This document shows, piece after piece, positions 29,518 through 59,701 of a DNA stretch of 64,000 bases; positions within the stretch are counted from its first letter, which is position 1; every line of letters starts with the position of its first letter. The notes below the pieces were generated by a model. It ran no database searches. It worked only from the letters and a program-made list of their open reading frames with translations, and had not been told where the DNA came from. A program made the translations under genes and the position numbers. Source of the stretch: Amphiscolops sp. MND2022 (taxonomy: Eukaryota); the NCBI GenBank assembly GCA_964187785.1, contig OZ076409.1, positions 48,238,001 to 48,302,000 on the forward strand, in the 5' to 3' direction.

Positions 29518-30301
29518 ATTTAAGCAGCCTTTTTTGGTTAATGAGCTATGTTTCTAAAGTAATGCTATATCTTTCGAAATGCCTGCCCAATTGAAATCTC
29601 AACTCCGAATTATATAACACAAACATCAAACTGTCAAAAATCGAAACTGTAGAATCGATGAGAATCAAATTTGCAGGTAGTTTGGGGATCGTGGAGAACA
29701 TTAATGATTATTCAGAAGTGGAAAAGCAGACAGGTTTCCGGCTTATTTTCGGTGTTTTTTGGAATCAAAACTCATTCTCCAATACACAAGATTCGACTCT
29801 TGCGATGATCATAAATATTCTGCACCTGCAAGAAAATTCGAGTTGTTTCTAAGTTCATTCATCATTTCTACATTTTACGGATCCAATTTGTTCTATGTTT
29901 CTAGTGAGAGGTTGTCCACTCCAGTAGACTTTGTTATGTTAAGTGTTTGGGTTTCCTGGAGTATCTCAGGCACAGTACATTTCAGGCACAACTGTACATT
30001 TCAGGCACAATAGATGAGGATATTCTTTCTTCTAGTGTATTACAAAAACGGACGCTGTATGGGGATCGGAACACTGAAAATGTAGTCTGATTTACAAAGA
30101 GTTCAAATTTAAAAATGAAATGTTAAAGAAAATCAATACTATTTATAATACCAATTCATCCATATGGAAGTAAATGATTACATTATAAGTTTACATTCAT
30201 TTGCACGTTAAAATTCGTTCATTCGGATGTTAACGTTCATTTGGATGGATTCGTTCATCCACTTGGCTGTCTTTAGAAGGCATCTGTTGGTGTCTTCCCA
30301 C

Positions 30302-30800
30302 GGTTACCAGTCGCTTGGCTTAATACCATTTGGCTTAATTTTTTCGTAGAGTCATTTGGCTTAAAAATTTCAAGCCAAGTGACCACAAAATTAAGCCAAC
30401 TCCATTCCAACTCAAGGAATAAATATGTCAACTCCCGGAAATATCATAATGTGGGGCATACACGGTGTATGCACGCTCGCCCTCACCGTCGCAAAGACCA
30501 GCTCCCACTACGATCGCTTCGCGATCTTCGTTCCCGCTAAGTCTTTGCTCCTGTTCGACCTCGCTTAGCAAGATGGGAATATAAGCGGCCCCAAGGGGCC
30601 ACAGGGCACTAGAGGAATAGGGGACATATCCGAGGGGTACTTGCTATGACATGTTATAATAATACGCTGACTACGTTATCAAGATAAATTTGTGTTTTCA
30701 ACTAAGTGGTTTTAAGTCAAATGACTTTAAGCCAAGTGACCAATTGTATTAAGCCAAATGACTTTAAGCCAAATGGCATCAAGCCAAGTGACTATTTACC
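30302..30800. mobile_element. MULE-like MITE, TTGGCTTAA-repeat arms, 8-bp TSD
   Basis: TSD CTTCCCAC at 30294-30301 and 30801-30808. Long imperfect TIRs with GG...CC termini. Contains shared core 1 (30452-30632). Confidence 0.8.
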
Positions 30801-31003
30801 CTTCCCACGAGTCCGAAAAAAAATTTTAATTACCACGAGTCCGAAAATTAATTTTAATTCCCATGAGTCCGAAAATAAACCATATCTCATTTGTTTCAAA
30901 GTATCGACTTTCATTTTATTTTTGAAATTTTAATAGTTATTTCAATCTGAAATTCCGCGGGACTCGTTCTATCGACACGCGCGCAGAATTGTTAAATTTA
31001 ATT

Positions 31004-31845
31004 GGGTGAGCGGAAGTAGGTCGAAGCGACGGGATCGAAAATCAGAGTTAGTCCTCAGGTCGACAGGCGGTGGGCGTTTGGATCGAATGAGTTTGCGCGA
31101 AAATGCAATCTGTCACTGAGATCGAAGTGGAAATGGTCAAAGAAAATGAGATCGAATCCATGTTTTCAAATACCTAGCGTTTTCAAATAACAATGTTTTT
31201 GGCCGTCGGATATGCCCCCCATTTCCTCTAATGCCCCGCGGCCCCTTGAGGCCGCTTATGTTCCCATCTTGCTAAGCGAGGTCGAACAGGAGCAAAGACC
31301 TAGCGGGAACGGAGATCGCGAAGCGATCGTAGTGGGAGCTGGTCTTTGCGACGGTGAGGGCGAGCGTGCATACACCGTATATGATCCCATATTAGGTGGG
31401 GAAAACTACCTAAATAATTTTAAACGCTTTTAAACACTTTACAGGAGCAAAAACCTAGCAAAACCGGAAAAATTCGATCTCAAAACCTTCGATCCATTTT
31501 CGATCTCGCTTTTCGCTCACACAAAAATTAGATCCAAAAATACCCCACCAGGTCGACATTCCAAATTTTTGAATGGAATCGAAACAACTCGGATCGAAAT
31601 TTTTATAACGTAGTCAGATATGTTCACATACCCCTAGTGCCCTGAATGCAGGGGCGATGCGAAGCGGAGCGACGTGCCATATGGCCATGCCTCAATGTTG
31701 CTACTTGGCGAAGGGAGCGAAGCGACCGAGCCATACAACAAATACGATAAAATTCGACCTCATTCCATTCGATCCCTGCAATTCGATCAAAAGGTTCGAC
31801 CTCTGTCCTTTCGACCAGAAAAATTCGACCTATTTACAGCCACCC
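31004..31845. mobile_element. MULE-like MITE, GGGTG termini, TCGA-rich arms, 9-bp TSD
   Basis: Perfect TSD AATTTAATT at 30995-31003 and 31846-31854. TIR gggtgagcggaagtaggtcgaa / ttcgacctatttacagccaccc. Contains core 1 (inverted, 31207-31389) and core 2 (31620-31744). Confidence 0.85.
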
Positions 31846-32075
31846 AATTTAATTAAATACCTGGATGAAGTTGCAAAAACAGTAGAATACAAACAATACA
31901 GCTCAACAATCTTTCGGAATCATGGGATTTGAAATTTATTTTCGGACTCGTGAATAGCAATCCATCTGTTTGGTACAGTTTCCCGACATCCAATCATCCA
32001 GATAAGCGGTTTCCGCTGGTGTCACTTTTATTCGCAGTATAAGATTTGATAGCGAAGTTTGTTTGACAAATTCTT

Positions 32076-32276
32076 TTACTTTCTTCGCGTAACTCTCACG
32101 CGATTGCGCAATGTCGACCCAGGGATGTCCATCACTTTCGCTGCTGCCCAGGGGATGTGCAATAGTACAGCGGCGTATGTTGCTCTCGTCATGAAATCAG
32201 ATTTTTCTTGTTTTCTTTTGATAACTTCTTCCTGCAAAAACTCCCATAGCTTCGAAAGCGTTATTAATATATGCAC
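32076..32276 (-). pseudogene. Pipsqueak-type HTH fragment, likely pogo/Tigger transposase relic
   Basis: AAAKVMDIPGSTLRNRV resembles the HTH_psq pattern AAxxxxIPxSTLxxR; short and isolated. Confidence 0.4.
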
Positions 32277-32401
32277 CCGTCAAGTTATTTCTTTTTGGCA
32301 CGATCCATTTTCCAAAAAATGCACCAGCGCCCACCTTGTATTGCAACCCGTTGCCTTGAAATGGCAGTTCCACTGCATCCAGAACTGGCGCTAATTGCCT
32401 C

Positions 32402-32927
32402 GGAGTGTACGCCTTTGATCTAACTCATTAGGTCTAATGGAATTAGATCTAACTTTCAGATCTAATTTAGGTCTAACTTTAGGTCTAACTTTCGGATCTA
32501 ATTTCATCTAAAATACTTAGTCTAACCCCTTTATGATTTAATATGTGTTCTGAAAGCGAAAATTTAATTTGGGGCATGTGCGATGTATGCACGCTCGCTC
32601 TCACCGTCGCAAAGACCAGCTCCCGCTACGATCGCTTCGCGATCTCCGTTCCCGCTAGGTCTTTGCTCCTGTTCGACCTCGCTTAGCAAGATGGGAATAT
32701 AGTCAGCCCCAAGGGACCGCGGAACACTAGAGGAAATGGGGACATATCCGAGGCACGTTTTATACTTTATATCACTTTTTAGTTTTAGATCCTCATCGAC
32801 TTTTGTTTTTCTCAAACTAGATCAAATTAGAAGAGATTTTTAGACCTGATTATTTAGATCAATTTATTTAGATCTCAGTTTTGCCCCCTCTCTTAGATCT
32901 ATTTCATTAGACCTGATTCCACGCACC
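32402..32927. mobile_element. MULE-like MITE, AGATCTAA-repeat arms, 9-bp TSD (1 mismatch)
   Basis: aattgcctc (32393-32401) / tattgcctc (32928-32936). Inverted aggtctaa/ttagacct arrays. Contains core 1 (32570-32750). Confidence 0.75.
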
Positions 32928-32989
32928 TATTGCCTCATTTGATTCTCTACTTGTTACATATTGAAGTTGATTCGTACGTGATATTGGTA

Positions 32990-33270
32990 GGGTGGGCGGA
33001 AATAGGTCGAAGGAACGTGATCGAAAATCAGAGTTAGTCCTCAGGTCGACATACCAAATTTTTGAATGGGATCGAAACAACTCGGATCGTATTTTTTATA
33101 ACCATATGGCCATGCCTCAATGTCGCTACTTGGCGAAGGGAGCGAAGCGACCGAGCCATACAACAAATACGATGAAATTCGACCGCATTCCATTCGATCC
33201 CTGCAATTCGATCAAAAGGTTCGACCTCAGTCCTTTCGACCAGAAAAATTCGACCTATTTACAGCCACCC
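32990..33270. mobile_element. Internally deleted copy of the 31004-31845 MITE, 9-bp TSD
   Basis: ATATTGGTA at 32981-32989 and 33271-33279; same TIRs and right arm as 31004-31845. Confidence 0.85.
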
Positions 33271-33279
33271 ATATTGGTA

Positions 33280-33579
33280 GTGCCATTTGGGTGACAAAAA
33301 TTTCAGCCCATTTTGGCGACAATAATGTCGCCTAAATGTCCCGTTGACTAATGGCCAAATATGTTCACATACCCCTTGTGCCCTAAATCCAGGAGCGAAG
33401 CGAAGCGGAGCGACGTGCCATATGGCCATGCCTCAATGTTGCTACTTGGCGAAGGGAGCGAAGCGACCGAGCCTTACAACAAATATGCTAACCTCTTCAA
33501 ATATATCAGTTAATTGATCAATTTGATCAACCCATTCGGCCCAAATGACTGGTGACTGGTGACCAAATGTCCCTGACCC
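33280..33579. mobile_element. MITE with CATTTGG/CCAAATG arms carrying core 2
   Basis: Bounded by ATATTGGTA at 33271-33279 and 33580-33588. Core 2 at ~33360-33486. The left TIR is about 6 bp shorter than the right. Confidence 0.65.
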
Positions 33580-33598
33580 ATATTGGTAGGCTTGCCAT

Positions 33599-36500
33599 TA
33601 TAGAAACCTCTATTTGTAGAAACAGTGTTAATAAAAATTTTTTTTTCGTACAATGATCCTCTGAAACAAAATGACACTTTAAAATACATCTATATATAGT
33701 CCGAACTGGTCGTAGTAGATCGGGGAGGACTGTCACAATCGAATGTAGTCCCCAAGTCTCACAGGGACCGTCTCGGGGGAGTCCGTGTGTTATCCGGGGG
33801 GTCTTTGCTAGAGGTGACTCGTTGGGTGATCCAGTTTCATTAAGTCTATCACAACATCTGGACTCCTTGTCGGGTGATCCAGCAGAAACGATGTGGGGCA
33901 TGATATCTTTGTCCAGCAAAGGCTTGTTCTCATCTCCGAGGGACTCATTTGCTGGACAGTTGAACTTGAGTTGGGCTTTGGTTATAACTGCCGGTGTCTC
34001 TGGGGGGAATATGGGACAGCTTGCTTCTGGGGGCGTTGTGTAAACTGTGCACCGGTCAGAACTTGACGCTTTGTTTCCGGTTGCGGTGTTTGCGGCTTTG
34101 CTTTAGGTGGATCTTGTGTCTGTTCTGGGTTGGTTCGTTGATTCACCGGAGACAAATTCTCGGCGTTGTTGAGAGGCTTCAAAGGTTGGATAGTGCGGGT
34201 AGTACCGGGTATGTGGTCCACAACGATCTTGTCGAATTTCCGTAGAAATTTCCGATTCCGGATGGTAACTCTGCCCGATCCATCAACTTTGACGGTGTAC
34301 TGGTCGAACTGTTTCACCTCGATCACTAAGCCGGTTCGATCCCATCGCAGTGGATGGTTACCTGTCTCGTTCTGGATAAAGACCTGGTCGCCAACTTTAA
34401 GGGGTTATAACCGTACCGTGTGTTCGGTGAGGCGTTCAGCATTTCTGACATTTCTAGCACGCATTCATTATTCCCTGGCCCGTGATGTTTCTATCCAGTT
34501 GTGAGGTATGTATGAACCAGGCAGAATGGGGATGAAGTCCTTAATGGGTCATCTAAAGATCATTTGTGCTGGGGGTAAACCGGTATCGCGGTCAGGGGCG
34601 TTGTGGTATTGAAGCATGCCTCTTTGAAATTTGCCGAGGTTGATCTCGCCGTTCGGGCCAGTGTTGTCCATGAGCATGCGCTTGCAGGTCTTCACCCCGA
34701 GCTCAGCGCGACCATTTGAGTGGGCAAGTGCAACAGATGAGAGGCGGCGATGGACACCCCAGTTTCACAACAGTTGTTGTGTCTCCTCGGCCGTCAATTC
34801 AGGGCCGCCATCTGACGATAGTTCGTCTGCAATGCCGTATGTAACAAAAATTTCGCCTAGGCATTTTACAAGACCTGAAGAACCATCTCGTGATTGCTGC
34901 ACAATCGGCCAACTAGAGTAGCGGTTCAAAACCACCATGTAATTGCAGCCCTTGTATTTGAAGTAATCCGCACAGATGCACTGGAAGGGGTAAATTGGTT
35001 CCTGAGCCGCGAGCGGAGGGCCATGTGGTTGACTGGGCGCACGCTCGTTGCCTGACCGGCACTGGGCTCTCAAGTTTGCAATAGCCGGCGTAATGCCGGG
35101 CCAATAGACGCTAGATTCAGCCCTGGACGTCATGCAGGAGACACCTTGATGAGCAGAATGCAGGGTGTCTAGGATTAGTGTTCTTATTGGTGATGAAATA
35201 ACAGTCCGGTTGTTGTATAAATTCACTCCATCCACTGTGCTGAGTCCATCCTTGAATTGGAAAAATTCTCGTATACTCGGGGCAAGATCCAATTGTGAGG
35301 TAATGCCCGTCACCTATTGTTTTTCTCCGGGAATATGGATGATAGAGAAGCGGCATGGCAGCGTCTTCTCCTTGAGTGACAGTAGTTTTTATATCTTGAT
35401 ATCGCCAAGAGGGAGTCGCAGAACGATACTTGGTTGATGCGGCCAAGCCAAGATCGGATATCAGTGATGTTTCGTGGCGTAGGAAAGTCATGGATTGCGC
35501 GGATATGTCTGTTGTCACTGAGCTGGATATCGGTCGGAGTAATGACGAAACCAGTAAAATCCACCGTGTCGGAGCCAAATACAAAATTTTCGGGATTCTG
35601 AACAAGTCCGTGTCGACCGCTGATGTCTAGCCAACGACATGTTTGAAAAAAGCTTTCTTCGAGAGTGTCTGCCCATAAGCATGTGTCATCGATGCATTTG
35701 GTTTTGTTGGGGAAGGCATTGACAATCTCGTCGGATCTTCTGGTGTATCCGTCCTTTGAATCAGCGTAGCCCTGTGGACAAGTTTTGTATCGGTACCGAC
35801 CCCATTACGTGATGAACGTGGTGAGGTGGCGATCTTCTTCTCGGATTGGTACACTGTGAAACCCGTTGCAAGCATCGGTAATTGTCTTCTTGGTCCCTGC
35901 AGGTACCAGCGTTGCTTGGTGAAACGGGGATTGGGTGTGATGTGTTTCACGAACAGCATGTTTGTTTAGCACCTGCATGTCCACTAAGCATCGTGGTTTG
36001 CCGTTTTTCTTCCGAGCCGTGACCATTCATTGGCACCAGGTAACCGGTTCTCCAACTGGTACAGCCTCCAGAACCCCGATATGACATCTCTGTCGATAGA
36101 CTGCTTCACTTCCTGTTGCCAGTGTAGAGGAACTGGAATGGGTTTGTGGACTGCGATCGGCTTGGCTTCGGGGTCGACGTGGAGTTCCAACGGCGGGCCC
36201 TCCATCAGAGGGAGTGTTTGGCATCCGCAAGTGTTGAAAGTGCTGGATCGGTATCTGTCTAGTATCCAATTCTGGAGGGCGGTCCGGTTGGCGTCCGTTG
36301 CTGGGAATGGTAGAGCAGTTGGTAATGGTGGCTGCTTGGTGCGTATGGCTCAGGAGCAGCCGCACTCCTCGTCGCATGGGCTTGCTGCAGCTGAACTGAC
36401 TGACATGGGTTGCTGAGTGGGTGATCCGATTCGCGGGAAGTCGCTCGGGATAATTCCCAGTGTTGTACAGGCTTCCCGACTCAAGTATGCATCTTCTATC

Positions 36501-38194
36501 ACGTCGGTCACATAGCATATTTGTGCTGTCTCTATTACTTTGCCAGACCCCGACTTTTCGGACAGTCGTAGGATAACAGCCCCTAAAATTGGGATGACGT
36601 CACGATTCACTGCCGACATTTTTGTTTTCACGGGTATGAGGTCCAATTTTTTGAAACACAGTCTGTGGATGATTTTGATCCCAACTAAGACAGATTGACA
36701 ACCAGTATCAGCCGTCATGGCTATCATAATCTGGCGTGTCCTTGTCTGAAGGCGGTACCCCAGCTCCTCAGAGTCTTTTATGTGAGCGCGGGCAGTGAGA
36801 GAAACTGTCGGTTGTGGCGGCGACCATCTTGTGATCCAGCCGTTTCTGTCGTCGAAAATGTGGTGGTCAAGGACGACCGCCTGTTTACCGGTTTATGAGA
36901 GATGACCGTGCAGGCTACCGAGATGTTGCACATTTTGTGAATGACAGTGTTGGATTCATCCACATCCTTCGTTGTGTTTCCACCGATCCTTTTGGGTTTA
37001 GACCTACAGACGTTGGTGAAGTGGTTTCTTTTGTCACGCTTTGAACAAATTTTGTCCCAGGCTTTGCATTTCTCCTTCCTAGCCTGTGTATCGCGGCCAT
37101 CACCACGGCCTGGTTTTCCACAATTTCAGCATTTGACTATGTGTTGGTCTTTGTCCGTCTGTTCATACGAGGATACTGTCGCAGCACTCGGGTTCTGGAG
37201 AGTTCCTTGTGATCGTTTACCAGCTTCTTTGGCATCTATGAACTTGATCGTGTCCTCCAGGGTCATGTCCTAGTCGTTATGTCCCAGTACATCTTGCTGG
37301 ATGTCGCTGTAGCCAAGTCCTCTAAAGAGAGCGTCACGGACCATGTCGTCAGTGTAATTGACTGCTTCAAATGGTATGTGAGAGCATTTTTTCGAGAACT
37401 TGTAGACCTTAGCTTGGCCTCGTAAGCGAGCGGCAAAGCTCCTAACACCCTTTTCTCTGTCCTGTGTCATTGTCAGGAGAGTCATTCTGCTGACCATGGC
37501 GTTCTTAGCCTTCACGGCTAGAGCCTTGATTGCTGTCAGAGCGTCTATCGCGGTTGCCATGGCGATGTTTGAGTGGGAGCGGTGGAGGTCCTTGCGTAGA
37601 CTGTCTTCACAACATTCGAGGAGCTGCAAGGTGGCATCATGGTCGGCTATGCGTGTGGCTGTCTTGTAGGCGTCCCACTCGGTGATGGTGATGAGGTGCT
37701 CCCAGTCTTCACTCGTATTCTCTTTAGGCACTTTCGAGCGAGACAATTTGTCAGGTTCGGCCTGTTGACAGGCGGCGGGGGCATGTGAATACCCGTGCAC
37801 CGTGAAAAGTGCGATGGCTTGAGCCGCTTCAATATCCCACGTGGCGTAGGTACATCCTTCAATGGGGCAATTGAGCACCACCATGGCTGGCGGACACGTT
37901 TACTGGTTTGTTTTCTGCTCGGAGCACACGACACGTGATACTACAAGGTGATATTCATGAGCGATACAATTGTAGCTCCGATCCAGTTCAGGTTTTGTTA
38001 GGAATAAGATGCAAAGGAACGAACTAACGGGAAAAGGGTAGATGTTCCTTGTTTGCAGGATCTTTGTAGATTGCAGAAGTTGTTGAGAATAGATGATCAT
38101 ATGGAAACCTCTATTTGTAGAAACAGTGTTAATAAAACATTTATTTCATACAATGATCCTCTGAAGTAAAATGACACTTGAAAATACATCTATA
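33599..38194 (-). mobile_element. Degenerate Ty3/Gypsy LTR retrotransposon, Mag-like, short LTRs
   Basis: ~95-bp direct repeats at 33599-33694 and 38100-38194. Gag 37270-37884 plus two degenerate zinc knuckles ~37000-37135; protease ADTGCQS (~36700); RT (GKPRCLVDMQVLN, NGFHSVP, KCIDD); integrase HSAHQG...CADYF...SDGGPE...SNGRAE. Many stops and frameshifts. Confidence 0.92.
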
Positions 38195-39013
38195 AATTTT
38201 ACGATCTGTTATAATAGAGTTCGCGACATTGTACAGCCAACTTATTCAAAGGGACGAGATTGTTATGCCAGGACTGAGTGGGAATTTCGGCTAGATCCTT
38301 GCCAGCTTCGATTTTTCATTCCGTTTCGGTCGCTGTTTTTCGGCAATTTTTTGATTGGCTCGTCGTTTTATGTATCAGATGACAAAAAACAGCTGACCCT
38401 GCACTTCTTTATTTTCTTGCGCTTCTTTCTGACAACCTCGTCCTCGCTTTCCGAACTCGATGTTGATGAGCTTGACAGATTCAGGGATTCATTGACGTTT
38501 GCAACTTCTTTAGTTCAGTTTTAACATCCATTTGAACGTTTTCCAAGTACGAAAACTCCAACTGGGGTTGAACACATAACTCAGTACTCTGAGTTACAGC
38601 GACTTACTTGTTATGACAAGTAAAAGACATTAACGTCAAATCACCGATGTTTGGGAGTTGTCCACCCAATTGGATTATGGCTGTTCTATTTAATTGTAAA
38701 ATAGCAAACTCGTCACTCGGTAATTCCATTAGTGAGCAACTGTTCTGTTCAAAAGTCAAACTAGAAATGAATTGTGATGAGAATTCGTCCGTTTGGATGA
38801 AATTGAAGAAAGAAGTGACTTCTCGCACACTTGACTTCTGTTATGACTCACATAACTCATTCTTGTGTAAGTGGAAATAATATAAAACTTTTGGATGCCG
38901 AATGATGCATTAAGTAAACTTCTGCGTCAAGGCAGTAACTGAGGTAACAAAAACATCTTTGATTGAAAAAAATAACGAACCATCGATAGTTTTTCCGACA
39001 TCCAGTACGCCAT

Positions 39014-41965
39014 AGAGTTTCCCCATTTCGAAACGGAGTGTCGAATTGACAATTGAATTTTACCGTCTTTGTGCGACGCTACTCTCGGCAAGTTGGGCAG
39101 AATCATTTCCCTTTAGGGGGTTTATCGATACCGACACAGGTATAATGGAACCATTTAATGGGACATTCTGGGTCGTCACACCCTAAAATATCGGTGTTGA
39201 ATGTTCCTCTGCGAAGACAAAAACTACCATCATCTTTCTGCGGGTATGGATTCAAAAGATTTAGAGACGAAAGAATCTTTTGGAAGATAACAAGGTTTAA
39301 CTCTGTCTAAACTTACTCTCGCAGAATTGTTAGCTTGTTGAATTAGCATAGTTTTTGAATCACGTTCCAACACCGGAAAAGGACCACTATATGGTGCTTC
39401 CAAATGCCGTTTTGTGCGATCTACTCGCAGCCAAACATGGGAGCAATCCTGGAGAGCTTTGGGTTGGTAACTTATCCTTGGAAGTAATTTGCTGGATGGT
39501 GCAACCTGAAATTCCAAAAGCTGCAAATGAGTTGATAATTTGGAAACATAATCGATTATCGCGAGTAAATCTTGGTAGAGTGTCATTACCGAATATATTA
39601 GGAACGAAAGCATCAGAACCGGTGACTATTTGAAAAAGCGATACTCCTTGAGAATTTGGAATGATGTGATGGTGGTAGTACTACTGGTAAGGCTTTAATC
39701 CGTGGTAGAGGCGAGGCCGCTAAAGATGGCTTTAGTGTTCTGTGATAACGTTCAATTTTTCCAATTGCTTGAGGCTGATAAGGTGCAGTACGCAAGCGTG
39801 CAAAACCAAGCAATTTGGATGTTCGGCAAACAAATCGGATTCGAATTGAGGTCCCTGGTCAGTTGTGATTTATAATGGAACTCCAAATCTCAAAAAACAG
39901 CTTGACATGAACGTTTCAGCAACCAAAGTGGCAATAATTGAACTTATTGGAGTGGCTGCAACCCAATTGGTAGAACGATCGATGAAAGATAAAATATACA
40001 TGTGAGGGCAATCAGACACCGCAGGTAATGGTCCAACTATGTCCATATGCAAATGTTGAAATCGAGAAGGAAATCCTTCAGTTGGTGGTATCGGTGTGAT
40101 TGTATGTCTTGTGACTTTGCTCTTCTGGCATTCGAGGCATTCCTTGCACCATTCTTTGATGTCCTTGGACGAATTAGGCCAAGTGAAACGTGCATTATTA
40201 AGCTTGTTGGTTGCTTTCCAATTTGGATGCGACATGTTGTGAAAGTTCAAAAACAATCTTTTTCTCATGTGTTTAGGAACAATTGGGCGAGGTATAATAT
40301 TGTTGTCACACAAGATTGTTGTATTTGGTGGAATTTGTACTGATTTCATGCCGTGGCCTTAAACATTGTTCATTTCTTTTTTGATTTCTGACGTTTGCGC
40401 CTTAGCATTCGACTGTAAGTCGAAAGGATCGCACGTGAGAGCGGATATAAATTTCAGCTGATCTGTGTTTACTTCCTCAACCTCAGGACGAGACAAACAA
40501 TCAGCAACATCGTTTGAATCACCAAAAATATGGATTATATCATCTATAAAATCTGATAAAAACGAAAACTGGGGAGATTGTCTCGGAGAATGGTCGGCCT
40601 GTTTTTCGGAACGAAGCAATAATAGGTTTGTGACCCGTAAAAACCCCACAATGTCTCTTTTCTATGTAACGTAAAAACCGCCAGCCACTCTTTATCGACT
40701 ACTGAAAAATCACGCTCGGCAACTGATAACTTACGGGAAAAAAAGCGAGTGGGACACTGGTTCCATCCATTCTATTGACATGCAAAACGCCTCCAATGGC
40801 CTTGTCGGAAGCGTCCGTCGTAATTGTGAGCGTTCCATCGGGAATGAATGATATAGCAAGACACGTTCGGCTAATTTTTCTATAGGTTTGACAACGCTTC
40901 GATGTCCCCTTGCAAATTAGTGTCATTTGCAACTTTTGAATAACGCGCTGGTTGACCTTCGTCCAGTAATAATTGCAGTGGTTCTACTATTTCGGCGTAA
41001 TGAGGCACATGCTGTCTATAAAGAGAGAACATACCCTTCATCCTTCTTAGATTTTGATGTTGGCCGAGGCCAGGTTTTTATCGTTCCCGCTTTGTCTGCC
41101 TTTAGTTGTAGTCCTTCAGACGTGATCAGGAATCCAAGGAACTCAACTTCGTCTTACATCCATTCACACTTTTTCGAAGAACAACGGAGCCCGAACTTCT
41201 TCAATCGATCCAAAACAGCTGCGACATCTTTCAAATGGGTTTCAATATCTTCTGAAGCAATCAGCACATCATCGACAAAAGCAAAAACCATATCAAGACC
41301 TTAAAAAAACTGAATTCATGAACCTTTGGAATTTCTGTCCTGCGTTCCGGAGACCGGAAGGCATTCTTGGAAACTCGTACAACCCAAACCGTGTTGTCAC
41401 TGCTGTTTTTTTGATGTCATCAGAATGTATTGGTATCTGAAGGTATGCCTTAACCAAGTCCAACTTGCTGAAAACTTTTTTTCCGAATAAATTGAAATCT
41501 GATAATTGAGGAAGGGGATAGCAGTCGCGTGTTGTAACGGCATTCAGTTTTCTATAATCTTCGCGAGGGGTCCAATCATTTGGTTCTTTCTTTGGTACCA
41601 TGTGTAACGGTGAAGCAAATCGACTACAAGGGGGTCGATAAATTCCAGTATTAACCATTGATTCAAAACACTGCTCTGCTATTGTGTATTTTTCCGGACA
41701 TAGTCTTCTTGGAGTTCCCAATGGGCTGTCAGCGGTGAGCTCTAATCAATGAACTGTTTGATGCAGTACCGTCCCTTCAAAGTCGACATCTCCAAACACG
41801 TCTTTGCCCAAAATAGTTTGTAAACGTTCGTCCCCGACATCAGGAATATCGATGTCAACTTTAGTTACAGAAAGATGGTTGCATGTTGAATTTCGTTGTC
41901 GTAGAGAGTGTAGTTGTGTTGTCTTTAAGTAATCCGTTTTTACAGTCTATGAAAAATTATTTCGA
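39014..41965 (-). mobile_element. Degenerate Ty3/Gypsy pol (RT-RNase H-integrase-PHD), 5'-truncated
   Basis: RT ASPLHMVPKK, FSKLDLVKAY, GLRNAGQKFQR, FVDD; RNase H TDASDKAIGGVL; integrase HNMSHP...CLECQKSK, LHMDIVGPLP, TDQGPQFES, KIERYHRTLK; GPY/F motif YSGPFPV. Purine-rich GGGGAAAC followed by TATGGCG at 39014 suggests a PPT and 3' LTR start. Confidence 0.92.
39088..39222 (-). pseudogene. ING-type PHD finger at the C-terminus of the Gypsy integrase
   Basis: Single frame: FCLRRGTFNTDILGCDDPECPIKWFHYTCVGIDKPPKGK*FCPTC. This is the C4HC3 pattern with one C->R (cgc) and one W->stop (tga, 39105-39103). It is one frameshift away from integrase ORF 39230..39613. Confidence 0.88.
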
Positions 41966-41989
41966 TTCCAAGGATATTACAAGACGCAT

Positions 41990-44800
41990 TAGCGACGTTT
42001 AGCGAACGCCTTTTGGAAGTCTAAAAGGATGAGGGATACATTTTCATGAGACCATGAATCACAATTTTCCGAAACAGCGTTGAGGATCCGTAGATCTGGA
42101 GACCGTCTAGGTCGAAATCCATATTGGCTGTCGCTGCAAAACTCAAGGAAGCATCAAATATAGTTTCATATACTCTCAAGATTTTCAATCAGATGGTTAC
42201 AAGGCCGATAGGCCTATAATTGTGAACATCGGTTTGAAGCCCTTTTTAAAGTCAGGAATAACATTCGTATGTGTCCATATTTGCATGTTTCCATGAAAAT
42301 CCTGGTCCGGGCAATGTTTTGTACAATTTTGAAGTTATGAAAGGTATAATTTCTGGAAGAGATTCCTTGGAAAATTGCGGCGGAAGTAAATCACTGCCTT
42401 CACTCTTGCGGAGCTTTGGAGCACTGAGATGTCGGTGAATGCCTTCGTTATTGAAATGAAGGCGTATACTACCAGCAGAAGGAATATTAACAGTAGTTTC
42501 AGTGGAAAGTGCAGGCCAAATGGAGCTGAAAAATTGGTTGAAAAGGTTGGTTTTGTCGGCTGAGGTTCTTGCGTTTTTTGATTTCCAGTGTATTTGATTC
42601 GCGGTTACTTCACTTTTTTACCAAGCTTTCTCAAATATCCGAACAGTTCTTTGAGTATCTCGTAGCAAGTTTTATTGTCATAGAGACGCACGTTTAGTTT
42701 GGTCTTAATGAGATCAAATTTCTGTTTCTTTGCTTCATTGAAAGGATATTCCTCGAGAAGCTTCTCGGCAGTGTTTAATTTTCTCATGAGATTTGAAGAT
42801 TATTGACTTTCCCAAAGTGGGGGCGAATAACGGTGTTGGGTGCGTTTGGGGTGTTTTTCTAACTTTTTCTTGACCCAGTCAAACCATTCATTCAACATTC
42901 TATCTATGTTCGAATTAAACTTGGGTAAAAAAAGATCGTTAATGATGTCAGACTTCAAGAAAAAAAATTACATCGACAAACGCTGTAAGTGTTTGTGCGC
43001 CCTTTGGCTTGGGAAGTTCCACGTCACATGAAATTGTCATCAAAATAGGACTGTGATTTGATTTAACTGTGGAGGACTCAATTAACTGTGTCTACTTGGA
43101 CATTTCCGATTAGGTCTGGAACGGTGGTCAGTACGATATCTAGAAGACGAGATTTCCTCGTGTTGAAATTCACATTTTGTGCGAAATTATAGCTGTAAAT
43201 TAGTTCCAAATTTGCGGACTGATAAACGTTCTCGGAAGTTTGACTGTTCCAATTTGTTTTATTAATATTCAGATCGCCCATAATTGTCCACCAAACACAA
43301 CACTGTTCGCTTAAAAGGTTTCTTCCCATTTTCAAGTGGTTCTATAGGCACTATTTTCAGGAGGATTGTAGAGGATACAACATCAGAAAGATGATGAGAT
43401 ACGACTAATTTTTGCAGCTGAGCTTGTTTGTTGTAAATTTGAAGTTGTCATGGAGAGGGGCAAGTGTGAAATCTTTGTCTTGATTCCAAGCAAGGCACCC
43501 CCATGCTGAGTTGCAGAATTTGTAAACTGCCGGTCTCCTCGTAAAACTGAATACCTTGGCAGGAATAACTCTGCATTTTTCATGCCCGGTGTAAGCCAAG
43601 TATCAGTTAGGCAGAACAAGTCGAAGTTTCAAATCAGAATAGACTGAGAAGGATGTTTTAGCCTTCTCTGGCAAGTTTTGATGCTTCGGAGGTTTAAGAG
43701 CAGGATTTTCAAAGGTAGTCACTTTTCTTTTACCTCAGTCGGTTGAAGGGCAAATCTCTTTGCTTTTGACGGTTAGTTTCAGATGTCTTATCTTGATGTT
43801 CTTCAGTGATTCATCTGCGTTGATCAACTCACGTCGAGTTTGGATCAATTCATGCTCGAGTTTTTGTTCTTTTCTATTGAGAGCTCTGCTCAAACAGATT
43901 GGGCTTCCATATTCTTTGAGCATGTATCCTTTTGAAGGAATCTTTTTGACATCCCATGGGTTGGAGAGACAGACTAGCAGCGTTCGTGGTCTTTTTTGAT
44001 TGGATGCATATTTTCCAATTCTTCCATTGTAGGAGATTTTCTGACAAAATCAAATGCATCAGAGAGGGAATGATAATCGTAACCTAACAGCTTTTTTCGG
44101 AACTGGCCCGTTTCGTCACTTTTGAGATATAACTTGTGAAGGCCAGCAATTCTGAATTGATGACTCGTTGCTACATTGGACCCATTTCCACATTTTACAG
44201 ACTCTTGAGCAAGAAAAGAAGGAAGAGTTTTCCAAACGATGCAATTTTATTCAGCGACTGTTTTTTGAAGCGAAGTCAATGGTTCTTTGATTGGTTTCAG
44301 AGACACCTCTAAACTTTCAATAGTACGTGTCAGAAGAGATTCGGTCTTGCTTTTTCAAACTTGAAATACTTATCAAACTTTTTATCAAATTTTGAAGTAG
44401 CAAATGGAATGGTCTCACCGGAATCATTGCAGGATTGATATTTCCAAAGTTACCCTGGGACTTTCTTCAGTTGAGATAGGATGCTTAAAGGAACACGAAC
44501 ATAATCTTTGTGGAACCAAGAAGCACATTGTTGGCAGTGCAGACTTCCACTCTTGCACTCCTCGAGACATTGGTCACACGGCCAAGGTCGCTGTAAGTTC
44601 GTTCCGGTTTTCTTCGACTGTTTTTCTCGTAAATGGTGAAGCATAGTTGTTTTTTCTTTGGTACGAGCTCTTTATTTAATAAGTTTATATGGCATATATG
44701 GCATCTTATTGCTTGGCCTTTACCGAACTGACCTGTTGTCTTACTGGTAGCCATTTGCGATGCATTGAATTTTCAAATCATTGCATTGACTGAGTGCATT
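41990..44800 (-). mobile_element. CR1/L2-group LINE, 5' part intact and 3'-truncated; ORF1 with PHD finger, ORF2 APE + start of RT
   Basis: ORF1 CDQCLEEC...CQQCASWFH (~44500-44580); APE FCLTDTWL, HGGALLGI, IMGDLN, LLDIVLT; RT NYRPI, QYGFRP, LDFQKAF ending at ~42000. Confidence 0.85.
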
Positions 44801-55983: not shown

Positions 55984-57421
55984 TGTAGACTCCGAGAATC
56001 TCTTCCCATGCTTGTGTTTTGACGGGAATCAATGATAAATCTGGATGTGATGTTGTTGAAGAGATCGGTAGTAACCGTTGCCTTGTGATTCATGCTTTTA
56101 CCTCAGAAAAGGTTAATGTGGCTATAGCACCATACAATCGATTTCGATCAATGTTTGGCCAAACAAAAAAAACTTTGTCAACCAAACACTCACAAGAACA
56201 ACCATCGAATGCAATTTATAATCTTTATACCAAATTCTAGTGAAATTATTCACATGAAAACATCACAGATCAAATCGACCAGGCAGAAAAATTCTTTCAG
56301 AAATGAAGCAGGAATGTAAAATTCATGAGTAACAAAAATTTGAGGAAAAAGATCAAAGTTTCTGAAGTATCATGGCGTCGAACATCCTCTAGGTATAAAA
56401 CAAAAAGAAAGTCCTATATTCTAGTTTTTTGTGTTGTAGTTTTTAAACCTCATATTCTAATTTGTTCGATTTTGTTATTCACAGATGTCTGATTCTTTTT
56501 TTCCACTTATTAGATAGAAAATTGACTTTTCTTCCTACTTCATCAACTCTTTTCTAACAACTTTTTCTAAGCGTTTAAGGTGCTGGAATTTTGTGTAACG
56601 TTTCGCTCAATCCACTATAGTGCATAGTATTACGTTTTCCGTATTTTACTTCAGAAATTCTCATAAGATTGTCACGGACTCGATTTACCGCGTTTTTGTC
56701 CACTCGCTTTCAATCCAGAGAAATCCGGTGGCGGTGGTTTTATGTGAGGGATAGATACTACACTAAGCTTGGACTGACCAATAAAGCAGCTTTACCAGCT
56801 GAGCAGGTGATGAGGGACACGCATTGTAATCATGCTTCGTTCACTTCCTCTCTGTTCGTACCATGGTATTTTCCTTCTACAAATACAGGGAGCAAGAGAG
56901 CAACGAAAAAGGAGGCAAATAAATTAGTGGTATGCTTTTCCAAAGATACCATGAAAATACCAGAAAGGCGCCACTTTTCAATACAAATCCCCTCTAATCG
57001 TTCCCAGCTCAATTTACATCATTTTATCCACTTTTTTTGTTTGTTATTTGTCAACGTGTTTCGTTTTTTTTTCGATTCGAAAACGTCAACCAATATTCCT
57101 GACAAATCTATTCGTTCATTTTGGAAAATAGATTATAAATAGAACTGAAACCACATTTTGACAAGCTTCAAATGGACTACATGCTGTAAACAGATTACGC
57201 AACGCAAGGTGCGTTTGCTTTGTCATAAACCGCTTAATTTCTACGGTTACCAACGGGCGGTGGCGGAGGCCATTTTGTATTTCAGCAGCCAAAACAAATT
57301 CACTGGAAGGCAGTCGTTACGCTTTGTCAAAAAAGGTCGTTCTGTAATGTGAGCAAAACGCCACAATAACAAAAATAAAAATTTTATTCCAAAAACCTGT
57401 TCACTTCTATACAAAATAAAA

Positions 57422-59701
57422 ATGGACACGGAAACAGAAGGAGGAGGACAAACCCAAACTGTGGATCAGCAAAGTGACCAAACTGCCAAACTGCCTTCGA
57501 TCGATCCACAAAGGGGGTCCAATTATCCTGATAACCCAAACGGTAGCTTTGCTAAGACTTCCAACCATAACTCTGCCAATAACAGTGACTCAGGTATCGA
57601 AGCCGAAGCTCCAGATGTTATAGACCCAAGATCCAAAAGAAACGAAACTAAACACGACACTACTGGTCCAAAAGCAACGCAAAAGCATGAAAACGATTTT
57701 CAAAGTGTGTTGCCAGTCATTGCGAACCCAAGGTCTAGACTACGCAATAGGAACGATCAACAGGTTGCTGGCACCAATCAGGATCCCAACTCCAGAGATC
57801 TCGGTAATAGTGGACTAACTACACATTCAAACCCCTTACATGCCAACAATGGTTATATATACCAGGAGAAACTTAATTTCCGCAAAATGGCAAAGTCGCG
57901 AGTACGGAGTTTAGATAACTTAGCATACTGTACGCCGCAGCCATCCAATTATAAAATCTTTAACGAGAAGGTTGATTTTCGTGCCCTCGCCAGATCCAAG
58001 TTAGATACGTACAGCTCTCTAGATTACAAGCACAAACGACCTCAAGTTGTCATTTTTCATGAGAAAGTCGACTTTACCTCAAACGCGAAAGCAAGAATAG
58101 GAAGTCTGGAGAATTTAAGCTTCCAACCTCGATCAAACCCCAATTTGAGAATTTTCAATGAACCATTACACGTGGAGGCCAAACCCAAAATCAAGTCTTT
58201 CGAGAATATCAACTTCTCGCCAAGAAAGATTGAATCGAGCGTTGTTCAACACAGCAGAGACTGGTTCACACCGGCCAAAAGTACGAGTATACGTATCGAA
58301 AATTCTTACTTTCCGTCAATCAACAACACGAACCCAATTCAGCTTGAGACAGCTTACAAGCGACGATTCACGCCAAGGTACTCCGAGAACGAGCAGCCTG
58401 GAATCGACGACTCAAGCGTCAGTAACTCGATTCTATCAATCTCAAAAACCCCAAGACACCATAACAAACAATCCTTGTCTTACCAATCCGAACCTGTTCT
58501 GAACAATCAAAAGAAAGTTCACTTCATCAACAACGATGAACTTTCAATTGCACATCGTAAAAAATTTTCTCAACCGGCCGCAGAGGATAATCATTTCCAA
58601 GCTATTGATGAAGAAAGTGGACAGATGTCAGCTCAAGTTACCCCAAGAAATATAGAAACGCGCCAAAGCAAGTCGAGATTGCGAGGAAGAAGACAGTCTA
58701 AAGTCTTTCCAGATGGGCCTTTAAGCTCCAGATCAGAATCCAGGCAATTCGGTAACGTCTCTAGGCTTGGTACACGCGATGCCTTACCAGAAATTGGGGA
58801 GCAAATGGGACAAAATAACGGGAATGACACCCCTGACGAGAACCACGGAGTTTTGCAAGCATTTGTTGTTGAACAAATTTATGATGCTATTGTTGAGAAA
58901 AGTGCAGCCCCAGTACAACTTTCTCCGCGCAAAGATCGCGACAATGATAATGCCGTCAAGGGAAGAGTGGAACCTATCGTAGAGCCCGAAATAAAACAAC
59001 CACAAGAAAAAAGCTTTGAAATATCAAACTCCAATCAAATCTCCGGAAACAACTCAGCCTCCCATGTTAATGAACAGAACCCAAAAACTGTTCTGAATAA
59101 CAACAACCCACGAGAAAGCACTTTAGAGGCTTCGAAGAGTGAATCTCTTCATGAACAGTGCCCTGAAAATCTTGTCGACGATTCTGAAGAAGAACGCAAT
59201 TCATTGGAAAAAACATCTAATGTTGAGAAAAATGATTCTACAATGAAGCAAGAAGCGACTGTAATTGCTTCTGGCGAAGAAGAATTTAAAACGCAGGATG
59301 CAAAATCTGAGGAATCAGATCATCTTACAGGAGAGAATGGGGAATCTCACCTTGAAAATCCAACCTTATCCGTTGATTCAGCGAAAGAACTGCAGGAAAA
59401 ACGCTCAAGATCTCACGAAGAAAAGGATCCAGGCCCCAACTTGGGCAAATGCAATGATGATGTTCAAAGTGAGCAAACTGGAGGCAAAGAAGAGAAAAAG
59501 GGCCTTGAAAACAATTCTGATACATTGAATGAGTCCTTCGAGGTTGGTGACAATGCAAGTAGTCACTCAGGTTCGGGACAAAATGATGACGCCATTGAAA
59601 CAAATCAGTCACAGCGGGAAATATCTGAAGAAACCCCCAGGGAAGTAACTCCTTCAACGAGAGAAGACGACGGGTACCAAAACAAGCCTTTTTCTGAATA
59701 G
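57422..59701 (+). CDS. 759-aa largely disordered protein with four Tau/MAP2/MAP4-like microtubule-binding repeats and an acidic C-terminal half
   Basis: The only long intact ORF, with ATG in an aaaaATGG context. Repeats of ~32 aa at aa ~145-270: EKLNFRKMAKSRVRSLDNL, KIFNEKVDFRALARSKL, VIFHEKVDFTSNAKARIGSLENL, RIFNEPLHVEAKPKIKSFENI (cf. tau R4 EKLDFKDRVQSKIGSLDNI). Confidence 0.85.
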   Translation: MDTETEGGGQTQTVDQQSDQTAKLPSIDPQRGSNYPDNPNGSFAKTSNHNSANNSDSGIEAEAPDVIDPRSKRNETKHDTTGPKATQKHENDFQSVLPVIANPRSRLRNRNDQQVAGTNQDPNSRDLGNSGLTTHSNPLHANNGYIYQEKLNFRKMAKSRVRSLDNLAYCTPQPSNYKIFNEKVDFRALARSKLDTYSSLDYKHKRPQVVIFHEKVDFTSNAKARIGSLENLSFQPRSNPNLRIFNEPLHVEAKPKIKSFENINFSPRKIESSVVQHSRDWFTPAKSTSIRIENSYFPSINNTNPIQLETAYKRRFTPRYSENEQPGIDDSSVSNSILSISKTPRHHNKQSLSYQSEPVLNNQKKVHFINNDELSIAHRKKFSQPAAEDNHFQAIDEESGQMSAQVTPRNIETRQSKSRLRGRRQSKVFPDGPLSSRSESRQFGNVSRLGTRDALPEIGEQMGQNNGNDTPDENHGVLQAFVVEQIYDAIVEKSAAPVQLSPRKDRDNDNAVKGRVEPIVEPEIKQPQEKSFEISNSNQISGNNSASHVNEQNPKTVLNNNNPRESTLEASKSESLHEQCPENLVDDSEEERNSLEKTSNVEKNDSTMKQEATVIASGEEEFKTQDAKSEESDHLTGENGESHLENPTLSVDSAKELQEKRSRSHEEKDPGPNLGKCNDDVQSEQTGGKEEKKGLENNSDTLNESFEVGDNASSHSGSGQNDDAIETNQSQREISEETPREVTPSTREDDGYQNKPFSE

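Follow-up and report, generated by a model that had tools for sequence, protein, structure and literature searches.

CsRN1-like Ty3/Gypsy retrotransposons with an ING-like PHD finger at the integrase C-terminus and unequal long terminal repeats in an Amphiscolops genome

A stretch of 64,000 nucleotides from Amphiscolops sp. MND2022 (GenBank assembly GCA_964187785.1, contig OZ076409.1, positions 48,238,001 to 48,302,000; the window) contains the decayed remains of a Ty3/Gypsy retrotransposon, whose relatives in the same genome fall into three families, A, B and C. In these elements the integrase is followed by a PHD finger that resembles those of the ING proteins, and in families A and B a short 5' long terminal repeat (LTR) is paired with a long 3' LTR that carries an additional open reading frame (ORF), ORF3. 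The fusion of integrase and PHD is a solid observation. The same holds for the unequal LTRs, the more surprising half of the finding, for which the mechanism is inferred but well constrained. LTRs that are equal at insertion are the textbook outcome of reverse transcription, and the detection and dating of LTR elements are based on this equality.

Read along the minus strand, positions 41998 to 39014 of the window have the order first described for them: integrase, GPY/F module, frame change, PHD finger, tail, polypurine tract (PPT) and LTR start (Table 1). Pfam matches to reverse transcriptase (RT), RNase H and the integrase zinc finger and core were found in broken frames from 41998 to 39870, the integrase domains being matched by Integrase_H2C2 (E 6.6e-15) and rve (E 0.019) at 39870-40358. 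With an X put at its single stop near 39103, the PHD finger scored 22 bits against Pfam PHD (E 1.7e-4), below the cut-off of 24; it has lost one zinc ligand and lies out of frame with the integrase, the frame change falling near 39230-39245. The preliminary description of the window, made from its letters alone, had placed a PHD finger behind the GPY/F motif and one frameshift and had called the copy dead. Both claims were borne out, and the pol remnant has many stops and frame changes. It had also placed a basic tail and a PPT/LTR junction at about 39014-39025; tail, PPT and an LTR start at 39014 were all located. Far from being a brief terminal remnant, however, this LTR measures about 1.5 kb, carries an additional ORF and runs from 39014 to 30058, split by two later insertions. 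The 5' part of the element is truncated at 41998 and was found neither in the remaining window nor in the next 19.8 kb. From 41998 to 38236 the window copy is 86-88% identical in DNA to other family-A copies.

A DNA search of the 1.07-Gb genome with the window copy gave 53 candidates, of which 40 were scored, and these matches separated into family A, at 81-92% identity with the window copy, and family B, at about 66%. Each copy was translated separately. Among 27 loci examined, 26 were readable, and in 20 of these the PHD followed directly after the last GPY/F strand with no stop or change of frame (13/18 in family A, 7/8 in family B). At four family-B places a single reading frame stays open over 1102 codons, from the protease through to the PHD. 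Family C, found by protein search, is more numerous than A and B (about 40 matches, 30-44% identity); several of its copies have frames of 1136-1145 codons, and the PHD was in frame in all five copies inspected. Between families A and B, synonymous sites were saturated in two pairs of natural copies (pS 0.81-0.87), while pN was 0.13-0.14 for the PHD, 0.17-0.26 for the integrase core with GPY/F and 0.37-0.39 for the linker. These sequence comparisons show the PHD to be as conserved as the integrase core and maintained by purifying selection. Furthermore, protein searches identified ten more integrase-PHD proteins with 37-48% identity in the tail (P0002, P0015, P0016, P0018, P0019, P0026, P0039 and P0163-P0165). 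The search of the source genome that the preliminary description had proposed revealed a multi-copy PHD, mostly in frame with integrase, and its view that the finger lies inside the element, at the position where chromoviruses have a chromodomain, was upheld.

Among metagenome contigs, a narrow alignment search returned 30 loci, none with a PHD fused to integrase, and a search with one protein gave no match. These contigs also held a multi-copy element of another eukaryote (L119-L137, L139) that encodes a YqaJ-like exonuclease of about 550 amino acids with a C-terminal ING-like PHD. In the Amphiscolops genome itself, further paired matches to GPY/F and PHD, separated by a query gap of about 30-60 bases (C388:98120-98507, C12:3298114-3298531 and C874:3176-3590 are examples), probably represent more PHD-bearing families with a longer linker.

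The finger had been classed as ING-type, and both its sequence and its predicted fold are ING-like. The best PDB sequence matches of the family-B finger were ING4, ING1 and ING5 (E 3e-18 to 5e-16), and its predicted model (mean pLDDT 77) superposed on structures of ING PHD fingers with H3K4me3 at a root-mean-square deviation of about 1 Å over 46-49 residues; integrase C-terminal domains were among the weaker Foldseek matches of the family-B copy model (E ~1e-2). To locate the aromatic cage, the ING positions were taken over from an alignment with ING4, using the residues that we take to form the cage in ING proteins. Across 14 element fingers, an aromatic residue before the first Cys was present in 14, the Met in 13 and the Trp in all 14. 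A second aromatic, Phe or Tyr, occupies the third cage position in 13/14 element fingers, none of which has Ser there, whereas 12/12 ING-motif fingers have Ser; the added aromatic would form a fourth wall of the cage. The cage residues are the best-kept residues other than zinc ligands across lineages that are 37-63% identical. Of the cage changes reported for the window copy, the retained Trp is typical of the lineage, in which the cage is intact, but the replacement of Met by Ile is private decay: of the 18 reads from family A, 15 have Met there, two Ile and one Leu, and all 8/8 from family B have Met. According to one account, PHD fingers that read H3K4me3 have Cys4-His-Cys3 ligands and an aromatic cage with an invariant Trp, often but not always with an acidic pocket for Arg2 (PMC3241642). 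The Cys4-His-Cys3 ligands and a cage with an invariant Trp are both present in the lineage fingers. A PHD tree (126 rows, 50 columns), which had been suggested as a means of tracing the finger to host ING genes, was mostly unresolved, with no element finger inside the ING-motif group and with nearest neighbours that varied, so 'ING-like' is the fitting term. The host has two ING genes with PHD exons (L069 and L070), the first of which has a Trp before the first Cys of its finger.

To place the elements, we built a tree of 42 integrases from which the PHD was excluded, using midpoint rooting and unnamed proteins rather than named CsRN1 elements as rows. All 14 integrases with a PHD or a frame-shifted remnant of one (two rows, broken inside the finger, were counted as remnants) formed one branch (98/94), with a PHD-less pair as its sister. 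The simplest reading is that the PHD was gained once, between GPY/F and the C-terminal tail of the integrase. The elements have protease, RT, RNase H and integrase in Ty3/Gypsy order between LTRs, together with a primer-binding site (PBS), a PPT and target-site duplications (TSDs). The gag motif CX2HX9CX3C (CHCC) was found in all three families, and perfect 4-bp TSDs flank 14 family-B and four family-C elements. The PBS is complementary to host tRNA-Trp: its complement occurs with a T-loop at eight places in the genome, and both loci that were cut out are tRNA-Trp(CCA) genes. Since these three features (gag motif, tRNA-Trp primer site and 4-bp TSD) are hallmarks of the CsRN1 clade (PMC2582038), we class the elements as CsRN1-like. 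Pfam found no chromodomain in the whole pol proteins, which have the PHD instead. Nor are these Ginger1 DNA transposons, which have terminal inverted repeats (TIRs) and no RT, as RT, RNase H and LTRs are present. A short motif, [RK]-x(0,1)-[VI]-x-F, occurs in the last 60 residues of 26 of the 42 integrases, with or without a PHD; it resembles what we take to be the RVxF docking motif for protein phosphatase 1, and a literature search on it found nothing relevant. Two elements of another type (L180+L184 and L181+L185), whose integrase looks BEL/Pao-like to us, share the tRNA-Trp primer site. In all, families A-C offer more than 100 insertion sites, and the genome also has PHD-less families primed by tRNA-Trp (145 primer-site matches).

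What might the finger do? It would bind the methylated tail of histone H3 (H3K4me3 or H3K4me2) through the cage of two aromatics, Met and Trp, and we consider this predicted activity likely. Once bound, the PHD would tether the integration complex to nucleosomes with this mark, much as the chromodomain does in chromoviruses, a step that is suggested by analogy and to which we give nearly, though not quite, even weight. According to a review, fusing the ING2 PHD to the integrase-binding domain of LEDGF redirected HIV-1 integration to transcription start sites (PMC8149907). A functional PHD need not steer elements to promoters, however. It might recognise the H3 tail in another state, bind a non-histone partner, dock on nucleosomes in general or act in control after integration, and we regard this as credible but on balance doubtful. 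In its favour, when 44 flanks of 400 bp were compared with 240 tiles from 20 random loci for composition and repeat cover, no promoter-like signal was seen in the flanks. Their GC content was 0.399 against 0.402 at random, and their CpG observed/expected ratio 1.02 against 0.90 (p 0.02), a measure that is a poor promoter proxy in a genome with so little CpG depletion (random ratio about 0.9). When the repeat library was biased to element loci, repeat cover was 0.44 in the flanks against 0.28 at random (p 0.012); a neutral library gave 0.25 against 0.20 (p 0.14). The acids of the Arg2 pocket are also less conserved than the cage (Asp in 9/14 fingers, Glu in 7/14, neither in family C), and PHD fingers with other ligands exist (PMC3241642). 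Because the surviving, old copies have been filtered by selection, present sites need not reflect the initial preference. Against the non-steering alternatives stands the cage itself, so well kept over divergent lineages, since readers of K4-unmethylated H3 lack one (PMC3241642).

We now turn to the LTRs. Behind the PPT, the LTR is long in families A and B (1523 bp in a family-A copy, 1450 bp in the family-B copy used as a ruler) and contains ORF3. The 5' LTR, at 264-324 bp, consists of the first 19-30 bases of the long form (segment 'a') joined straight to its last ~250 bases (segment 'b'). The junction falls inside a direct repeat that measures 12 bp in family B and 14 bp in family A, lengths that were reached by 7 and 0 of 1000 shuffles, respectively. 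The two copies of the repeat change in step: the base that distinguishes A from B is the same at either site. For the least biased count, an exact 30-base pattern of the family-B LTR start, blind to whether the LTR was long or short, was located at 34 sites: all 18 behind a PPT were long and all 16 behind host flank were short. Over all fetched family-B loci, readable 5' LTRs were short in 22/23 cases, not counting two that are truncated within 'b', a short LTR of solo-like appearance, the middle LTR of a tandem and loci without a 5' end. The 3' LTRs were long in 32/32 cases, 12 of which had been found through ORF3 and are therefore biased, and in 10/10 found through integrase. The 12 loci found through ORF3 contained neither a long 5' LTR nor a long solo LTR, and 14 short/long family-B elements had perfect 4-bp TSDs. 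In family A, whose ends read TAT...ATA, readable 5' LTRs were short in 13/14 cases and 3' LTRs long in 17/20. Family C, without ORF3, has equal LTRs of about 175 bp and TSDs in four of four copies; as it is symmetric in the same assembly, an assembly artefact is an unlikely source of the asymmetry. Taken together, these counts show a family-wide product with a short 5' and a long 3' LTR.

Both families have a TATAAATA box 86-91 bases ahead of the LTR end. Given this position, the direct repeat would belong to U3, and a single copy of U3, the long one, would be expected in the RNA, so that the short LTR would have to be remade in each cycle. In agreement with this, three copies that must be very young, as their 'b' segments are 100% identical at both ends, are already asymmetric. 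An alignment of the LTRs of 11 elements had 29 columns with a variant common to both LTRs of the same element or elements (indel columns among them are not independent) and none separating 5' from 3' copies, by which a 5' LTR inherited as a separate lineage was rejected. In the youngest subfamily, a single-base variant of 'a' likewise agrees between the two ends. Splicing was rejected as the origin of the short LTR, since splicing would shorten both LTRs and splice signals are lacking at the junction, whichever strand is read. Finally, at two loci (L053 4580-5448 and L061 2834-4011) a 25-base segment 'a' is joined to antisense gag at a site matching the repeat at 11 of 12 bases; the first is a complete insert of about 870 bp with a U3 end on each side and its own 4-bp TSD. 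Such products are what a free, short plus-strand primer would give on landing at the wrong look-alike.

We infer, as the rather probable course of events, a programmed plus-strand jump over U3 in each cycle, a third strand transfer that would make the LTRs unequal by design. Genomic RNA would start behind the TATA box in 'b' and thus hold U3 once, in its long form. Plus-strand synthesis, primed at the PPT, would copy 25-30 bases and then stall at the A-run after the repeat; the nascent strand would re-anneal about 1.2 kb further along the minus strand, at the 12-14-bp repeat in 'b'. The resulting short strong-stop DNA would be moved in the second transfer to become the 5' LTR, and the 3' LTR would be completed on the intact minus strand by copying the full long U3. 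ORF3 would in this way be present in every RNA generation and absent from the promoter-side LTR.

A number of points weigh against this mechanism. The transcription start was placed by the TATA consensus alone, and as the repeat in 'b' doubles as coding sequence for the ORF3 terminus, its conservation could be due in part to that role. RNA-dependent and DNA-dependent synthesis show comparable rates of template switching between direct repeats, and homopolymer runs promote it, but retroviral RTs normally require more homology than 12-14 bp to skip efficiently (PMC3187697), so near-complete skipping confined to the plus strand would be new at this length. In family B no hairpin joining the two repeats was predicted, and when the skipped segment was folded as DNA, its two ends did not pair into a stem in any consistent way. 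A nearest-neighbour test of the template was uninformative (own LTR closer in 2, tie in 5, another LTR closer in 4; n=11). There are also exceptions: three family-A elements with a short 3' LTR, one family-B copy with a truncated 5' LTR in long context, and one family-A copy with long LTRs that have the same nested insertions at both ends.

The protein encoded in the skipped segment bears on what else might produce the short LTR. ORF3 spans about 310 codons within U3 of families A and B (323 from stop to stop in B) and is about 50% identical between them, where the DNA no longer aligns; its 16 homologues are all of A/B type. Searches found no Pfam family better than E 0.1, HTH_psq being at E 0.17. 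Among PHROG families none fell below E 0.08, and there was no PDB sequence match and, for the whole protein, no match in a language-model atlas; its predicted model (pLDDT 35) had no meaningful fold match. Its basic character, a Ser/acidic stretch and the weak helix-turn-helix match suggest a nuclear DNA-binding protein. As a lead only, the C-terminal part had a tyrosine-recombinase cluster as its best look-alike in the language-model comparison (score 0.85, 103/256 features), with PF00589 on 47% of the cluster members. Profile comparison by hhalign with the four usable recombinase sequences, a thin profile, gave a probability below 0.2%, equalled by 14/40 shuffles, and PF00589 had no match at the ORF3 places.

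In one alternative, the LTRs would be equal and long at insertion, and a site-specific recombination at the repeat, perhaps with ORF3 as the recombinase, would later remove U3 from the 5' LTR. The precise, constant junction and the company that asymmetry keeps with ORF3, both being absent from family C, fit this idea, as do the look-alike cluster and the two 5' LTRs in long context. Excision leaves unexplained why family-B 3' LTRs stay long, however, and does not account for the two mis-joined 'a' products, while the profile and Pfam comparisons tell against the recombinase; we judge excision improbable. We think no better of an intermolecular route, in which short strong-stop DNA from a second, U3-deleted template would be moved to a long minus strand, a mechanism proposed for sporadic asymmetric HIV-1 proviruses (PMC9278108). 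The three family-A elements with a short 3' LTR could supply such templates, but the route predicts many short/short and long/long elements, when family B has a short 3' LTR in 0/32 cases and a 5' LTR in long context in 1/23, and the agreement of the 'a' variant between the ends of the youngest subfamily also speaks against it. The out-of-frame PHD in the window copy, and ING fingers being its closest solved relatives, might suggest that a piece of an ING gene had landed just once, in this copy, or that the assembly is at fault. This reading is refuted by the three families, ten outside proteins, single integrase branch, purifying selection, TSDs and symmetric family C, and has a negligible chance of being right. 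Overall, a PHD reader together with a programmed plus-strand jump over U3 is the explanation that we favour by a modest degree. The stronger combination, in which the jump is joined to a PHD that tethers integration to H3K4-methylated chromatin, making these elements an active-chromatin counterpart of the chromoviruses, is on balance unlikely to hold in full.

Several other LTR arrangements were seen. Family-B copies form tandem arrays (L041+L043, L058+L059, L062, L066+L067), including a two-unit element with a shared long middle LTR inside one TSD and head-to-tail units of partial pol and U3. One young family-B copy (L044, 3381-3428 and 9253-9300) has a 5' LTR truncated inside 'b' and is flanked by a 48-bp duplication rather than one of 4 bp. 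At L035 9346-9364 (G000:C9:29163824 region), a copy of the PBS lies between a family-A 3' LTR and host DNA, which looks like copying of the tRNA primer ahead of integration.

How do these elements compare with known ones? They share with CsRn1, PwRn1 and AgCR of the CsRN1 clade the gag motif, primer site, TSD length, GPY/F and overlapping gag and pol frames; those elements are reported to have LTRs of equal length (381 bp in PwRn1) and neither a chromodomain nor an env-like protein (PMC2582038), whereas the present ones have a PHD behind GPY/F and, in families A and B, unequal LTRs and an ORF3 within U3. Reader domains at the integrase tail of Ty3/Gypsy elements are known as the chromodomains of chromoviruses, which differ in domain, in clade and in targeting heterochromatin rather than the active mark predicted here (PMC6673714, bioRxiv 10.64898/2026.05.21.726589). 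PHDs are known from LINEs, Penelope-like elements (PLEs) and other elements (PMC2836005, PMC6673714, PMC8557442). CopiaMBD and the PHD-bearing LINEs and PLEs, too, have captured epigenetic readers, with a different superfamily, position or domain (PMC6673714, PMC8557442). The DNA transposon Ginger1-9_HM has a Gypsy-like integrase with GPY/F and a C-terminal PHD but is bounded by TIRs, lacks RT and has a Ulp1 domain beside the PHD (PMC2836005), while the present elements are LTR retrotransposons with the PHD straight after GPY/F. Relative to the ING fingers (PDB 2G6Q, 2PNX, 3C6W and others), the best match in sequence and fold with the same spacing and the cage Met and Trp, the element fingers differ by the aromatic in place of Ser and the variable Arg2-pocket acids. 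Asymmetric HIV-1 proviruses have unequal LTRs ascribed to misalignment in reverse transcription, yet they are sporadic and heterogeneous, mostly 3' deletions in defective proviruses (PMC9278108); families A and B have a single fixed junction, always 5', in nearly all copies, and retain a gene in the long LTR. Passages of PMC5408684, PMC12801592, PMC5890265 and bioRxiv 10.64898/2026.05.21.726589, figures and supplements aside, contain no integrase-PHD fusion, and in the literature searched, outside Repbase, GyDB and most subscription journals, we found no description of a PHD-bearing CsRN1 lineage or of family-wide unequal LTRs.

Table 1 Parts of the family-A element in the window (positions counted from the first letter of the window)
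Feature	Position	Strand	Basis and remarks
Family-A pol remnant (protease-region end, RT, RNase H, integrase)	39230..41998	-	Pfam RVT_1, RT_RNaseH, Integrase_H2C2, rve; many stops and frame changes
Integrase GPY/F module	39290..39440	-	Sequence; motif at 39374-39396
ING-like PHD finger	39088..39222	-	Sequence, Pfam PHD
Basic pol C-terminal tail with K-x-V-x-F motif	39049..39078	-	Sequence
Polypurine tract	39015..39029	-	Sequence; same place ahead of the LTR in A and B
Segment 'a', first 24 bases of 3' LTR	38991..39014	-	Ends in 14-bp direct repeat (38991-39004)
Long U3, first part, with 5' half of ORF3, decayed	38236..38990	-	A/B ORF3 homology
Long U3/ORF3, second part, beyond nested retrotransposon	31965..32400	-	87-90% identical to the long LTR elsewhere in family A
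Segment 'b', last ~230 bases of 3' LTR, with LTR end	30058..30288	-	TATAAATA box at 30139-30147; ORF3 C-terminus match there

Within ORF3 of the window copy, a second decayed Gypsy element, presumably Mag-like, is nested at 32401-38235 on the minus strand (RT, integrase and a gag with a double Cys-His motif). The 5' part of the family-A element is cut by decayed LINE-like sequence at 42000-44700, also minus, in which endonuclease- and RT-like motifs and, at about 44400-44600, a Cys-rich PHD-like stretch were recognised by eye; this sequence had no Pfam match in three frames. A cluster of short, MITE-like repeats of about 170-300 bp in both orientations lies at 30290-33500, and such repeats recur in or beside many family-A and family-B copies. 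On the plus strand, an open frame of 782 codons at 57353-59701 encodes a tau/MAP tubulin-binding repeat (Pfam E 2.9e-15).

In the PHD fusion, nature provides a testable pairing of integrase and chromatin reader, the mark that is read being, by prediction, an active one. A short/long asymmetry fixed throughout a family would represent a new obligatory step of reverse transcription and a novel means of carrying an additional gene, and it would define a class of elements whose ends are mis-called by annotation programs. With three families in one genome that differ in the Arg2 pocket and in ORF3, the Amphiscolops elements provide built-in controls for both questions.

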